The notes under the pieces are model-generated. The model made no database searches and was not told the DNA's origin. It saw only the letters and a list, made by a program, of their open reading frames with translations. The position numbers were made by a program, and so were the translations under genes. A stretch of 22,205 bases of DNA. Origin: Octopus sinensis (lineage: Eukaryota). Positions 372 to 13,672 of this stretch are shown piece by piece (the first letter of the stretch is position 1; the number at the start of each line of letters is the position of its first letter). The DNA is taken from assembly GCF_006345805.1 (NCBI RefSeq), contig NW_021823963.1:1-22205 (forward strand). The letters are read 5' to 3'.

Positions 372-429
372 TACCATATCGGACCGATTTCAGAGTTAGC
401 TACTAAGAGCCCTCTCTTCGTCAGTGATA
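372..429 (-). ncRNA. Type I hammerhead ribozyme (array copy 1)
   Basis: Minus strand: UAUCA-CUGACGA-AGAG..CUCU-GAAA-UCGG U CCGA-UA|UGGUA. Stem I UAUCA/UGGUA, near-palindromic stem III, AUA triplet. Confidence 0.85.
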
Positions 430-846
430 CATGTGGCAAAAGAAATAAATGAGATACTTACTTATACCCATGGAAGAAGCAAATACTAAGTCATGGGCAC
501 AACTAAGTACCCCAAATACATCCAAAATAGAAATACTCTAGCCCATTCGAGGCACGTGCGATTTGAACTGAGGCTCTTACAGCTTAAATTTATATCAAAT
601 GTGAGGATAAAATTGTTTCCGAAAAAAAATATTTTCTCCAAAAAAATTTTATCAATGGCCCGCATATTAAAAAATACATTTAACGGTTAAATTTATAAAC
701 AATTCATAAATGAGGGCAAAGGAAAAAATTTCTAATGCCAAATATGCCGAAAAATTGGACATATTGTCCATTAACCATATAATTTTTTCACAATACGCAC
801 GCTACTCGAACAAAGGTCAACAGAAATTTCTAAAAAATTCCATTAT

Positions 847-904
847 TACCATATCGGACCGATTTCAGAGTTAGCTACTAAGAGCCCTCTCTTCGTCAGT
901 GATA
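847..904 (-). ncRNA. Type I hammerhead ribozyme (array copy 2)
   Basis: Same motif as 372-429. Confidence 0.85.
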
Positions 905-1349
905 CATGTGGCAAAAGAAATAAATGTGATACTTACTCATACCCATGGAAGAAGCAAATACTAAGTCATGGGCACAACTAAGTACCCTAAATACATCCAA
1001 AATAGAAATACTCTAGCTCATTTGAGGCACGTGCGATTTGAACTGAGGCTCTCACAGAGTGAGTTAGTTAGTTCGGAAGTGAACACTTAAATTTATATCA
1101 AATGTGAGGATAAAATTCTTTTCGAAAAAAAATATTTTCTCGAAAAAATTTTTATCAATGGCCAGCATATCAAAAAATACCTTTAACGGTTAAATTTATA
1201 AACAATTCATAAATGAAGGCAAAGGAAAAAATTTCTAATGCCAAATATGCCGAAAAATTGGACATATTCTCCATTAACCATATAATTTTTTCACAATACG
1301 CACTCTACTCGAAAAAAGGTCAACAGAAATTTCTAAAAAATTCCATTAT

Positions 1350-1407
1350 TACCATATCGGACCGATTTCAGAGTTAGCTACTAAGAACCCTCTCTTCGTC
1401 AGTGATA
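1350..1407 (-). ncRNA. Type I hammerhead ribozyme (array copy 3)
   Basis: Same motif with one substitution in the stem II loop region; core intact. Confidence 0.85.
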
Positions 1408-1824
1408 CATGTGGCAAAAGAAATAAATGAGATACTTACTCATACCCACAGAAGAAGCAAATACTAAGTCATGGGCACAACTTAGTACCCCAAATACATC
1501 CAAAATAGAAATACTCTAGCCCATCGAGGCATGTGCGATTTGAACTGAGGCTCTCACAGCTTAAATTTATATCAAATGTGAGGATAAAATTCTTTTCGAA
1601 AAAAAAATATTTTCTCGAAAATAATTTTATCAATGGCCAGTATATTAAAAAATACTTTTAACGGTTAAATTTATAAACAATTCATAAATGAGGGCAAAGG
1701 AAAAAATTTCTAATGCCAAATATGCCGAAAAATTGGACATATTGTCCATTAACCATATAATTTTTTCACAATACGCATGCTACTCGAAAAAAGGTCAACA
1801 GAAGTTTCTAAAAAATTCCATTAT

Positions 1825-1882
1825 TACCATATCGGACCGATTTCAGAGTTAGCTACTAAGAGCCCTCTCTTCGTCAGTGATA
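1825..1882 (-). ncRNA. Type I hammerhead ribozyme (array copy 4)
   Basis: Same motif as 372-429. Confidence 0.85.
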
Positions 1883-2111
1883 CACGTGGCAAAAGAAATA
1901 AATGAGATACTTACTCATACCCATTGAAGAAGCAAATACTAAGTCATGGGCACAACTAAGTATCCCAAATACATCCAAAATAGAAATACTCTAGCCCATT
2001 CGAGGCATTTCTATTTTGGATGTATTTGGGGTACTTAGTTGTGCCCATGACTTAGTATTTGCTTCTTCTGTGGGTATGAGTAAGTATCTCATTTATTTCT
2101 TTTGCCACATG

Positions 2112-2169
2112 TATCACTGACGAAGAGAGGGCTCTTAGTAGCTAACTCTGAAATCGGTCCGATATGGTA
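2112..2169 (+). ncRNA. Type I hammerhead ribozyme (inverted copy 5)
   Basis: TATCA CTGACGA AGAG...CTCT GAAA TCGGTCCGA TA TGGTA; predicted cleavage after 2164. Confidence 0.85.
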
Positions 2170-2649
2170 ATAATGGAATTTTTTAGAAATTTCTGTTGAC
2201 CTTTTTTCGAGTAGCGTGCGTATTGTGAAAGAATTATATGGTTAATGGACAATATGTCCAATTTTTCGGCATATTTGGCATCAGAAATTTTTTCCTTTGC
2301 CCTCATTTATGAATTGTTTATAAATTTAACCGTTAAAGGTATTTTTTGATATGCTGGCCATTGATAAAATTTTTTTGGAGAAAATATTTTTTTTCGAAAA
2401 GAATTTTATCCTCACATTTGATATAAATTTAAGCGTTCACTTCCGAACTAACTAACTCACTCTGTGAGAGCCTCAGTTCAAATTGCACGTGCCTCGAATG
2501 GGCTAGAGTATTTCTATTTTGGATGTATTTGGGGTCCTTAGTTGTACCCATGACTTAGTATTTCCCCCCATTCATCACCCTCTTGTACTGTCTTATGTCC
2601 CTTGTACTGTCTTATGAGTAAGTATCTCATTTATTTCTTTTGCCACGTG

Positions 2650-11175: not shown

Positions 11176-11585
11176 TCTTTTACTCTTTTACTTGTTTCAG
11201 TCATTTGACTGTGGCCATGCTGGAGCACCGCCTTTTTAATCGACAACTCGACCCCGGAACTTATTCTTTTGTAAGCCCAGTACTTATTCTATCGGTCTCT
11301 TTTTGCCGAACCGCTAAGTGACGGGGACATAAACACACCAGCATCGGTTGTCAAGCAATGCTAGGGGACAAACACAGACACACAAACACACACGCGCATA
11401 TATATATATATACATATATACGACGGGCTTCTTTCAGTTTCCGTCTACCAAATCCACTCACAAGGCTTTGGACGGCCCGAGGCTATAGTAGAAGACACTT
11501 GCCCAGGGTGCCACGCAGTGGGACTGAACCCGGAACCATGTGGTTGGTAGACAAGCTACTTACCACACAGCCACTCCTGCGCCTA
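11176..11585 (-). mobile_element. Full-length tRNA-derived SINE (duplicate of 9495-9904)
   Basis: Near-identical to 9495-9904. Confidence 0.9.
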
Positions 11586-11612
11586 TCTAGAACTTTCATA
11601 CATATTCACTTT

Positions 11613-11688
11613 GTTTCTGATGATGGAATATCCAGAGTACAGACATGTTAGCTTATCACTTGGGATATCCCAGAAACAGCTGTAAGAC
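11613..11688 (+). ncRNA. Type I hammerhead ribozyme (duplicate of 9932-10007)
   Basis: Identical motif at offset 1681. Confidence 0.85.
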
Positions 11689-11907
11689 TTCAAATTATCC
11701 TTACTCTAATTAAATTTTTATAAATAACTAGAGATACTTGTCCTATCTTGATTTTTTATGTCCTTTTCCTCAAATATATACCTGCTAACATGGAAGCCCT
11801 AGCTCCAGCATCAGCTGTGAACATGAAACCTAACAGATGACCAATTATAGCACTTACTCAGCATTCCTATTTATTTAGATCACCAGTGTATGAAATCCCT
11901 CATATTT

Positions 11908-11955
<48 letters not shown>

Positions 11956-12265
11956 CAGGCAAACACCCAGTACTAAGAATGGGTACACACCCAAAAGCAG
12001 CTGGTCTACTGGTCTTGCCATGCTGGAGGGGGAGTGGTTTGCTCCCTTACTTGCAATATATATATATTTCCAAAAATGGTTTCAAGGGATATATAATTCT
12101 GGGGTTACCGAGTTTAACTCTTACTTCAGTTCTCAATGCCAGCTAGCCACAACGAATGTTGGTGATACTCAAGTTAGTGAAAATTCACTAGACTCGATTA
12201 TTATCCTCACTTGGTAAATCTGAATGTACAGAAAATGATAACGATCTCCACCTAGCAGTGAAAAA

Positions 12266-12349
12266 TGGACCCTGAAGAAGCTGCACTGACAACACAAAGA
12301 CATACACTTAACAGTGTGCAGCAGTTTGTAGCTGAAATGTGTAGGTCCA
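12266..12349 (+). ncRNA. Type I hammerhead ribozyme with extended stem II
   Basis: TGGACC-CTGAAGA-AGCTGCA...TGTAGCT-GAAA-TGTG-TA|GGTCCA; 6-bp stem I, 7-bp stem II, GUA triplet, weak stem III. Confidence 0.8.
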
Positions 12350-13258
12350 AGCGAAGAACAATGTAAATAACTGTATGATAAAATATGGATGTGCAAATCT
12401 CCATTTCCTTGATCTTCATTAATTTCATATATATATGGATAAAACAATAGTGATACAAGGAGTGTTAATACCAAAAGGCAATCTTTATCTCCAACTTAAC
12501 TTAGATGCTATGTTAGAGCATGGAATACTGCATTATATACCTTGAGAGGACCTCTTGATGGACTTGTGGTGCATAAAAGCATCTGCATTTAGATCACTGA
12601 TAGATAAGAATTGTCTGCTATGGCTGCCAGAAATGCCAAATCATGTGATTTTAGCATGTTTTGGGCTCCTCAGTGACAGGGATCCAGTAGAGATGGAACA
12701 TCAGAATTTCCCATCAGTTATACATAGAATATTAATATTTATTCAGGCACTGATGTCACAAACAACCAGTGGATAGACTTTGTCAATAAAATTTAAGTTT
12801 ACCCCAGTATAACATTTAACAAACATTATTTTAATAACTATGGCTTGCTATTACATTTTTAAAGAAAATTCTTATTTCAAAATGTATTTTAGTGACACGC
12901 AAAATACAAAAAACAATAATTCAAAGTTACCTTTTGATTGGCTTCATTTAACAGTTTCTCTGTGTGAGAACGACGTGCATTTGCTTCTTGAACCATATTG
13001 TTTGCTTCCTGTAATATGAAGTCAACATAAATTTATTACCAATAATACAGTTCATAATAATGATGATGTATATACATATATTTAACTGCATGGAAGGCAT
13101 GGTAACTACCTCAAAATTTATCAATTTTTATAGTGCTAGCTATTTCAGATTTGTGAAATTACCTCGTAGAAATTAAGAATAAAATTATTAGCCACTTTCA
13201 GCTTCATAATACAAGTATATTTACACTATAAGTATATTTAGAGCATAACTATAATTAA

Positions 13259-13672
13259 ATAGAGTGGTTGTATAATGTCAACATAACATGACAGTCCCGT
13301 AAAGGGAATTACACCACCGCTATATAGCCCTAGGAAGCATCAACGCTTCCTGTTGGCTTTGACACATTTCCTGTGTCCTTATATTTGCAAAGGGGAGACA
13401 AGCACTCCCACCAGCTAGGACTAGCAACCTGAAGACATGTATGTTTCTGGGTCTTGCCCGTCATCAGTCCAGGGTAGCAAGTCCCGCTAGCTGAGATGCC
13501 TGCCAAGCCTTTGCAAATATATATATTTACAGTGAAATCTATTCATTGGTCACCGTAATTAGAAATATTAAATTTCTAAATGTCTCAAAGAGACATGAGC
13601 GGTGGTGGAGCGGATAGAGTGGTTGTATAATGTCAACATAACGTGACAGTCCCGTAAAGGGAATTACACCAC
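13259..13672 (-). mobile_element. Retrozyme-like element: 355-nt monomer plus 59-nt terminal direct repeat
   Basis: 13259-13317 is repeated at 13614-13672 (1 mismatch); single central HHR; many hairpins. Confidence 0.75.
13412..13493 (-). ncRNA. Canonical type I hammerhead ribozyme with long stem I
   Basis: Minus: CAGCUAG..GGAC..CCUGGA-CUGAUGA-CGGGCAAGACCCA-GAAA-CAU AC AUG-UC|UUCAGG..GUCC UAGCUG; GUC triplet; predicted cleavage between 13434 and 13433. Confidence 0.88.

Follow-up and report, generated by a model that had tools for sequence, protein, structure and literature searches.

Hammerhead ribozyme motifs and Penelope-like element remnants crowded together in a contig of Octopus sinensis

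Do hammerhead ribozyme (HHR) motifs interleaved with remnants of Penelope-like elements (PLEs) mark a hotspot, a host function or the debris of known retroelements? The question is raised by a stretch of DNA from Octopus sinensis (contig NW_021823963.1, positions 1–22,205), the whole of which, 22,205 nt, is here called the window. It is likely that the window is an accumulation of 3'-end remnants left by EN-bearing PLEs, from at least one Neptune/Nematis-type and at least one Hydra-type lineage, together with non-coding HHR units using the same machinery. A literature search (octopus, cephalopod, retrozyme) found no report of octopus hammerheads. Even if ordinary, the locus would point to hammerhead families of retrozymes and PLEs that are abundant in octopus and as yet undescribed, a Hydra-type remnant included, and repeat libraries could classify them.

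Hammerhead motifs and their families

All twelve HHRs of the original prediction were recovered by a type I descriptor, with no additional ones in the 22,205-nt window; the motif listed at 13412 has its proper span at 13428–13473. Six lie on the minus strand (372, 847, 1350, 1825, 3109 and 13412) and the other six on the plus strand. A type I HHR has a core made up of CUGANGA, GAAA and UH, together with stems I–III, of which stem I is open. The strict core (CUGANGA, direct stem II) was passed by nine of the twelve motifs, while a CCGAUGA core (U4C) occurs in motifs 3109 and 4850 and a mismatch closes stem II in motifs 4850 and 13412. All twelve are of type I with a short palindromic stem III, which is a PLE/repeat pattern (PMC4209133, PMC3088659) also found in non-LTR retrozymes. 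The stem III self-duplex was calculated at -13.9 kcal/mol for family A and -11.1 kcal/mol for family C/D. In hammerheads of this kind stem III also occurs as ACGU and ACGCGU, and the AUGU and AUGUGU stems of the window are probably CpG-decayed versions of these rather than separate designs.

The five stem III strings that had been named were borne out. The twelve motifs are not independent, and reduce to six insertion events and five families. Six of them lie within one 475/503-bp tandem-plus-inverted array (family A), and two (9932 and 11613) are one motif doubled by a 99.6%-identical 1.68-kb duplication, with 4850 as their relative. One array and one local duplication thereby account for a twofold inflation of the raw count of 12.

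Structure, abundance and origin of the family A array

Family A forms a tandem array on the minus strand (119–2007) of 3.9 non-coding units of 475/503 bp, each with one HHR (TRF period 475, 3.9 copies; alignment). Its RNA-sense 3' end adjoins a (TA)-rich run at 1–118, and no ORF of 80 aa was found in 119–2680. Hammerhead A1 (372–429, minus strand) has the stem III AUCGGUCCGAU; the motif at 847–904 is identical to it, and those at 1350–1407 and 1825–1882 show single changes. An inverted copy (2007–2563, plus strand; 97% complementary) of the unit-2/unit-3 stretch 956–1512 is joined through a fold-back with a 19-nt loop and contains hammerhead A5 (2112–2169). It is followed by a foreign 42-nt piece (2561–2602, plus strand; 42/42 identity to 4351–4392) and by a second inverted piece resembling 1815–1919 (2613–2732, plus strand), in which hammerhead A6 (2650–2707) precedes a 14-nt internal jump and then a (TA)-rich run. 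This layout, tandem plus 5' inverted, is that described in PMC8557442.

On its unit structure, family A would be a non-LTR retrozyme, with circles and cleavage predicted. A complete type I HHR is present in 4/4 tandem units, which are non-coding, of low GC (0.33) and highly self-paired (monomer fold against shuffles, z -5.3), and the array falls under the rule of a 2026 preprint, 'two or more consecutive units with a complete HHR' (bioRxiv 10.64898/2026.07.22.740005). Animal non-LTR retrozymes, known also from a mollusc (mussel), are likewise non-coding, low-GC (33%) tandem units with a type I HHR each and a self-paired monomer, and share with family A a high copy number and co-occurrence with PLEs (PMC7229834, bioRxiv 10.64898/2026.07.22.740005). 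Family A differs from them in its stem III, an 11-nt palindrome, in its inverted arm with template jumps, in being known from DNA sequence alone and in a unit of 475/503 nt that exceeds the reported circRNAs. The figure of 475 nt lies above the 170–400 nt of those circRNAs (PMC7229834), yet within the 51–972 bp of the preprint.

Family A is very abundant in public sequencing runs and has many genomic copies. In a contig comparison of four of the 24 listed runs, variant contigs over 771 bases numbered 4,746 (X1), 5,173 (X2) and 3,913 (X3), tallies that are evidence of abundance and not of copy number; run X1 is possibly the source of the window's own sequence. Run X11, whose RNA status is a guess, gave 120 contigs and was excluded as evidence. 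The loose ends of 17 (X1) and 15 (X3) contigs enter (TA)n at seemingly the same unit end. Both partners of a stem-II pair vary, with A>G at 2126 and T>C at 2147, the changes being unphased, and the listing for family A contigs contains no core position with variation of 10% or more. The fold-back and foreign-piece junctions were spanned by none among the contigs listed, an uninformative absence.

Should the clustering prove real across the genome, array A would offer a natural experiment on the origin of animal retrozyme arrays, be it rolling-circle copying, multimeric-RNA copying or DNA-level amplification. The units lie 15–20 substitutions from one another in 417 columns, more than a single round of rolling copying would leave, an observation that counts against the reading given at the outset. 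Growth at the DNA level from one pseudo-LTR-derived unit, by unequal crossover and then a repair-type template switch, with no ready-made multimer inserted, is a possible origin to which we give the smaller share of belief. The inverted arm was copied from units 2–3 and not from the adjoining unit 4: it is nearest to unit 3 (9 substitutions against 12–17 for the remaining units), has a 28-nt insert in common with unit 2 and shares with unit 3 a two-base variant absent from 97–99% of family depth. The units had therefore diverged before the inversion, and local amplification has been proposed for such arrays by the 2026 preprint (bioRxiv 10.64898/2026.07.22.740005). However, a 5' inverted arm is a standard PLE product, and read-through RNA from a diverged donor array yields an identical pattern. 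The 42-nt piece has an identical counterpart 1.75 kb away and may be of local origin, but it is part of another abundant repeat, as loose ends of contigs show.

Other hammerhead units and the Penelope-like remnants

Stub B is a 137-bp piece between two (TA)n runs (3021–3157, minus strand) with a decayed HHR at 3109–3143 (CCGAUGA, stem III AUGU). Stub C (4840–5120, plus strand) carries its HHR at 4850–4899 (CCGAUGA, ACAGCUGU) and stub D1 (9906–10226, plus strand) at 9932–10007; in both, (TA)n begins 223 nt past the cleavage site, and C and D are one family (alignment score 82 against a null maximum of 42). To judge from order and strand, D1 is probably the 3' end of the Hydra-type element described below (7407–8330), severed by two SINE-like inserts (8338–8760 and 9494–9905). 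The stretch 8548–10229 is duplicated in tandem (10230–11969, plus strand; 1671/1678 identical columns), with hammerhead D2 in the copy (11613–11688) and breakpoints that fall within (TA)n/(CA)n. Stub E (12068–12427, plus strand) lies between short (TA)n runs; its HHR (12266–12349) has a 6-bp stem I, a 7-bp stem II and AUGUGU, and the predicted folding of its context is no stronger than that of shuffled sequence (z 0.1).

Element F (13259–13678, minus strand) consists of a 355-nt unit and a 65-nt terminal repeat (13259–13323/13614–13678, 95% identity), with the HHR (13428–13473) capping a long, rod-shaped stem (fold z -7.3). A decayed relative of this family, G (11955–12067, plus strand; 69/92 identity to F, score 54 against a null maximum of 32), contains a broken thirteenth HHR at about 11967–12012 which the original prediction had overlooked; it has three core departures, was read by eye and is absent from the output of a fuzzy HHR scan. 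Family F has 1.2 units and one HHR, short of the consecutive units of the retrozyme rule, and would represent a monomer derivative or pseudo-LTR stub; F and G are probably non-LTR retrozymes. Alignments did not rise above the null for E against F, A against D, E or F, B against 3766–4440, the region upstream of C against the Hydra 3' flank, E or B against the 3' flank of the PLE ORF at 13732, or 6690–6890 against D, C or flank.

Homologue searches confirmed a PLE origin for all three ORF pieces, the piece at 3231 being weak alone (best tblastn E 1e-4). The 5'-truncated, broken ORF at 13732–14912 (plus strand) possesses RT motifs, a Cx4CxxC linker and GIY-YIG with CCHH, and shows 48–53% identity to RT+GIY-YIG proteins (E down to 2e-106). 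It is an EN+ PLE, of Neptune/Nematis type as judged by its linker and CCHH motifs, and no HHR was found in its 3' flank (14912–15170). The last 26 codons of a GIY-YIG endonuclease of the same type lie at 3231–3311 (plus strand; tblastn E 1e-4 to 0.04 in 5/15 homologues), and this DNA resembles the terminal part of the ORF at 13732 (score 53 against a null maximum of 45). The broken C-terminal half of a third PLE (7407–8330, plus strand; 1,293 homologues at E ≤ 0.001, HMMER) has a CxCx5C linker, CxxC before E and CxH after N, without CCHH; the RT region in which RWK-like and DKT motifs would lie is absent from it, and the full-length homologue P0162 has RWR and DKT. By these motifs, as defined for the clade in PMC8557442, it is a putative Hydra-clade remnant; a reading of this piece (7425) as Nematis was abandoned once that definition was compared. 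Directly 5' of it lies an inverted copy of 8851–9226 (6966–7379, minus strand; 80% over 420 nt).

Pfam analysis of nine window fragments scored only a LINE RT, and no PLE fragment matched a relevant family; PLE identity therefore rests on the homologues. A word-index protein search with the 7775 fragment gave 0/39 candidates, but the full HMMER search did match. A protein of Octopus vulgaris, whose genome holds 191 Mb of PLEs in 190 families, shares 84% identity with one RT of the window. Observations that count against the outset reading are found here too: no HHR is linked by sequence to any ORF, contexts A, B, E and F match neither one another nor the 13732 3' flank among the pairs tested, and the link between D and the Hydra remnant comes from order, with extension attempts having failed.

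The window shares with EN+ PLEs of the Hydra and Neptune/Nematis clades (Craig et al. 2021, PMC8557442) the motifs of linker and endonuclease, insertion at (TA)n, truncation at the 5' end and an inverted 5' copy; it differs from them in having broken fragments only, assigned to clades by motifs. The minimal hammerheads of metazoan PLE pseudo-LTRs (Cervera and de la Pena 2014, PMC4209133) are alike in their short stem I, longer stem II and palindromic stem III, and in occurring as many families per genome, mainly as single motifs from truncated copies, with opposite-strand pairs 100–700 bp apart. Unlike these, the window motifs have no assigned ORF, two families carry U4C, and stems III in A, C/D and F are 8–11 nt.

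Insertion at (TA)n, clustering and ribozyme function

A (TA)n run occurs within 300 nt downstream (RNA sense) of five of the six events, as compared with 33.6% of random positions (p 0.018), in a (TA)n-rich window and with a threshold set after the distances were seen and the run length loosened from 6 to 4 units. B, E and G are each flanked by (TA)n runs, and element F does not end at (TA)n. Published work describes (TA)n targeting, truncation, tandem/inverted structure and the kinship of PLEs and retrozymes (PMC8557442, PMC4209133, PMC7229834, bioRxiv 10.64898/2026.07.22.740005). In the proposed mechanism, the PLE GIY-YIG enzyme would nick (TA)n or AT-rich DNA, and the PLE RT would begin 80–270 nt downstream of the HHR and mostly terminate early, leaving short stubs in which the ribozyme persists and (TA)n marks the end. 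Tandem and inverted pieces would arise through template jumps and fold-backs, and the ribozymes would act as dimers in the elements' own RNA processing, not for the host. The predicted ecosystem of retroelements and parasites stands as regards GIY-YIG elements and non-coding HHR passengers ending at (TA)n, as published; which PLE moved which unit is something that we only infer.

The window belongs to a known kind and is densely populated, without amounting to a proven hotspot. A self-reinforcing hotspot, in which PLE insertions would split or seed (TA)n and draw further PLE and retrozyme insertions, with HHR clustering far above random, is a tentative and rather doubtful proposal; if true genome-wide, it would imply feedback between microsatellites and PLE targeting. 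By our boundaries, PLE- or HHR-related DNA makes up 41% of the window, or 24% once array A and the duplicate are set aside, compared with 6.83% PLE in the O. vulgaris genome, but that value may belong to another species and leaves out the satellite and unknown classes, array A perhaps among them. Six events in 22 kb, if typical, would mean about 760,000 motifs in 2.8 Gb, against published HHR counts of about 5,000 (mussel), 9,000 (Xenopus) and 120,000 (axolotl). However, 100,000–300,000 randomly placed motifs would give 22–4,341 equal-sized windows with at least six, and the window was selected for its HHRs after the fact. B, E and G sit between (TA)n runs, but no motif was found by the HHR scan in 13494–22205. 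Unrelated small elements aligned at microsatellites are known from SaTar MULE arrays of guayule and rice (PMC5907723); these are DNA transposons without ribozymes, and several window elements, unlike them, are interrupted by SINE-like inserts. More speculative still, and unlikely, is that octopus genomes have among the densest animal HHR complements (many families, at least 10^5 motifs), deposited in clusters that (TA)n would seed and that would reinforce themselves, with several PLE clades and retrozymes side by side and RTs jumping between families, so that array A, with its foreign 42-nt piece and its arm from diverged units, would record jumping on multimeric RNA.

That the cluster serves the host by fragmenting read-through transcripts on both strands is very improbable, and the fragmentation of such transcripts that had been suggested is itself doubtful. 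Motifs do occur on both strands (six plus, six minus), the strict core is intact in 9/12, and array A supplies partners for a double hammerhead, whose predicted fold (-30.1 kcal/mol) about equals two monomer folds (-29.2 kcal/mol). Yet this double fold is predicted to lie 5.5 kcal/mol above the best two-strand fold, and the hammerhead is not the best predicted monomer fold in any of the six motif types, lying 3.4–9.4 kcal/mol above the monomer MFE. Two of these types carry U4C, which reduces in vitro activity, B and G are decayed, and no host gene was identified in the window. Published PLE minimal hammerheads cleave poorly or require a partner copy or protein: single motifs showed no cleavage (PMC4209133), cleavage was seen in 1/9 Xenopus dimers, and an anole PLE ribozyme required protein, with no RNA-seq reads ending at its site.

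Rfam cmscan (E ≤ 1) returned no hammerhead among 44 matches in the window, all of them below threshold and nearly all to miRNA models, placed on (TA)n or on inverted repeats; short arms and a dimer-type stem III probably place the motifs outside the models. The fuzzy scan (up to two core changes) gave no further motif above noise in the window; its extra rows were family A motifs in shifted register, a hairpin of the A unit, a microsatellite and two rows of low score. That the motifs are chance matches within AT-rich repeats, as the Rfam result and the weakness of stub B alone might suggest, has a negligible probability: the 12 observed compare with a mean of 0.017 per window (maximum 1) under strict rules and 0.06 (maximum 2) under relaxed rules, drafted only after the motifs had been inspected, in 300 local dinucleotide shuffles; family A has a two-sided stem-II change; and C and D retain core and stem III in diverged contexts with different stems II. 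Chance is refuted for the motif set as a whole, and B alone, which is without a stable stem II, may be a chance match.

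Hammerhead motifs and independent events

A scan of both strands of the window with a type I hammerhead descriptor returned exactly the twelve motifs of the original prediction (starting at 372, 847, 1350, 1825, 2112, 2650, 3109, 4850, 9932, 11613, 12266 and 13412). Nine of these possess a strict hammerhead core, while the core of 3109 and 4850 reads CCGAUGA and a stem II closing mismatch occurs in 4850 and 13412. Three hundred dinucleotide shuffles (500-nt blocks) gave a mean of 0.017 motifs under strict rules and 0.06 (maximum 2) under relaxed rules, the latter composed with the motifs already in view. 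The motifs are real, and shuffled sequence does not reproduce their number. An Rfam search of the window gave 44 matches, none to a hammerhead, and a looser hammerhead scan showed no additional motif above noise. A decayed thirteenth motif, related to the 13412 element, emerged from alignment at approximately 11967-12012 (69/92 identity; alignment score 54 versus a null maximum of 32).

Six of the twelve motifs belong to one structure (119-2732, family A). Motifs 9932 and 11613 (D) are a single motif copied within a 1.68-kb tandem duplication (8548-11969; 1671 of 1678 columns identical, 99.6%), whose breakpoints fall in (TA)n/(CA)n microsatellites; it may be a recent unequal crossover or an assembly error. 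Motif 4850 has its core, stem III and downstream sequence in common with this pair. On sequence grounds, the motifs thus represent six events in five families (A; 3109, B; 4850 with 9932/11613, C/D; 12266, E; 13412, F), or seven events counting the decayed copy. This agrees with the predicted minimum of five contexts; the twelve motifs are not twelve separate insertions.

Retrozyme-like families A and F

The structure at 119-2732 consists of 3.9 tandem units of 475/503 bp, an inverted arm and a second inverted piece: the arm is followed by 42 nt (2561-2602) identical to 4351-4392, a unit-4-like piece and (TA)n. A short local duplication comes after the 42 nt. Positions 4003-4175 and 4258-4438 are tandem copies, 82% identical, of the tail of an abundant repeat. 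Units differ from one another by 15-20 substitutions in 417 columns, and the inverted arm differs by 9 from unit 3 and by 12-17 from the others. It has a 28-nt insert in common with unit 2 and a two-base variant in common with unit 3, the latter missing from 97-99% of family depth. The units had thus already diverged when the inversion arose, a point against a single rolling pass on one monomer circle at this site. Either a multimeric RNA template from an older array or a later DNA-level inversion could be the source.

When four public contig sets were placed on 1960-2730, the three large runs, one of them under a different organism label, contributed 4,746, 5,173 and 3,913 contigs. Because so many variant contigs occur per run, family A is abundant, contig depth itself giving no copy number. 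Of 557 loose contig ends, 24 were listed; two of these rows, comprising 17 and 15 contigs, enter (TA)n at what appears to be the unit boundary seen at position 119. Stem II position 2126 shows A>G in 38-81% of depth and its partner 2147 T>C in 22-73%, these changes being unphased; no varying core position was listed at ≥10% of depth in the same runs. The consensus of loose ends at 2156-2162 in runs X3 and X11 suggests a subfamily of A in which stem III, though still palindromic, and the inner part of stem II are both different.

The monomer delimited by the cleavage sites (GC 33%, no long ORF) is predicted to fold far more stably than shuffles (z -5.3). Family A fits the non-LTR retrozymes as defined in the parts consulted of PMC7229834 and of a 2026 preprint (Li, Clavereau and Pollet, bioRxiv 10.64898/2026.07.22.740005), the latter arguing that retrozyme-type units are non-autonomous derivatives of Penelope-like elements (PLEs). 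Family F consists of a 355-nt unit and a 65-nt terminal repeat, its ribozyme carried on a predicted long rod (z -7.3); either a circle or a tailed pseudo-LTR would be expected to yield such a more-than-unit copy.

Penelope-like remnants and (TA)n

The three predicted PLE ORF pieces were all upheld by homologues or motifs. The ORF at 13732-14912 is up to 48-53% identical to proteins carrying RT and GIY-YIG domains and has a Cx4CxxC linker and CCHH; judged by its sequence, it would be of Neptune or Nematis type by the criteria seen in PMC8557442. The piece at 3231-3311, weak alone (best E 1e-4), corresponds to the final 26 codons of a similar protein and resembles the 3' end of the long ORF at DNA level too. 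For 7407-8330, 1,293 homologues were found, and it possesses CxCX5C, CxxC-E and N-CxH without CCHH, the pattern that defines the Hydra clade in the sections consulted of PMC8557442. A low-complexity (TAC/AAT)n stretch within its linker (7655-7770) encodes T and N runs. The sequence 5' of this ORF (6966-7379) repeats the ORF's presumed 3' flank (8851-9226) in inverted orientation, matching the usual PLE layout. Motif D lies approximately 1.6 kb downstream on the same strand, behind two inserts, and we infer that it is the ribozyme of this element. The inserts belong to a second repeat family that we take to be SINE-like (8338-8760 and 9494-9905 with duplicates, and a fragment at 6882-6950), with three insertions in or beside the Hydra-type element.

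For five of the six events, (TA)4+ occurs within 300 nt downstream in the RNA sense (83-271 nt), whereas the same holds for 33.6% of 5,000 positions drawn at random (p 0.018). As the threshold was picked after the distances were known, this enrichment is suggestive only. F does not end in (TA)n. An insertion bias of PLEs for (TA)n, the target of almost all Hydra-clade families, is already described in PMC8557442, and PMC11167929 reports, in the portion available, that an anole PLE nicks AT-rich DNA in vitro with RT initiating internally.

Density, predicted activity and other repeats

PLE- or hammerhead-related DNA occupies 41% of the window by the boundaries drawn here, or 24% minus array A and the duplicate. 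In the accessible text of PMC13282606, PLEs of O. vulgaris comprise 191 Mb, 6.83% of the genome, in 190 families, and simple repeats 7.45%; its supplement does not mention ribozymes. Six events per 22 kb, if typical, would correspond to approximately 760,000 motifs genome-wide. Given this number and 24-41% against 6.83%, the density in the window probably exceeds the average. If 100,000-300,000 motifs were scattered at random, however, 22-4,341 windows would already be this dense, and the window was itself selected; the predicted hotspot is unproven.

In all six motif types the hammerhead was not the predicted best monomer fold. The double hammerhead of A is predicted to be approximately as stable as two free monomers but 5.5 kcal/mol less stable than the best two-strand fold. 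According to the parts consulted, single minimal PLE motifs showed no cleavage and dimers low cleavage (PMC4209133), and U4C reduces hammerhead activity in vitro (PMC3088659). The proposed cutting of read-through RNA is plausible only for array A, and perhaps for E, F and D. Nothing points to a host function for the cluster.

Every component of this interpretation is already published: hammerheads at PLE termini and their numbers in the thousands per genome, tandem as well as inverted arrangements, the occurrence of retrozymes alongside PLEs, and (TA)n targeting. No literature report of octopus hammerheads or retrozymes was found, though they may be listed in subscription papers or in supplementary files to PMC8557442, PMC4209133 and the preprint.

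A LINE RT fragment, presumably RTE-like, lies at 16416-17790 on the minus strand (Pfam RVT_1, E 1e-28). RT sequence at 17205-17975, also on the minus strand, shares 84% identity with a protein named for Octopus vulgaris, the highest among the 120 matches listed, and makes octopus the probable source of this DNA. At 19321-22205, at least seven tandem units of approximately 370 bp with internal (GA)n runs extend beyond the edge of the window; this array contains neither a hammerhead nor an Rfam match. Repeats at 15180-16380 and 17950-18700, which we assume to be SINE-like, contain an internal 61-bp minisatellite; they occur in both orientations and form an extensive inverted pair around the (TA)n at 15401-15530.
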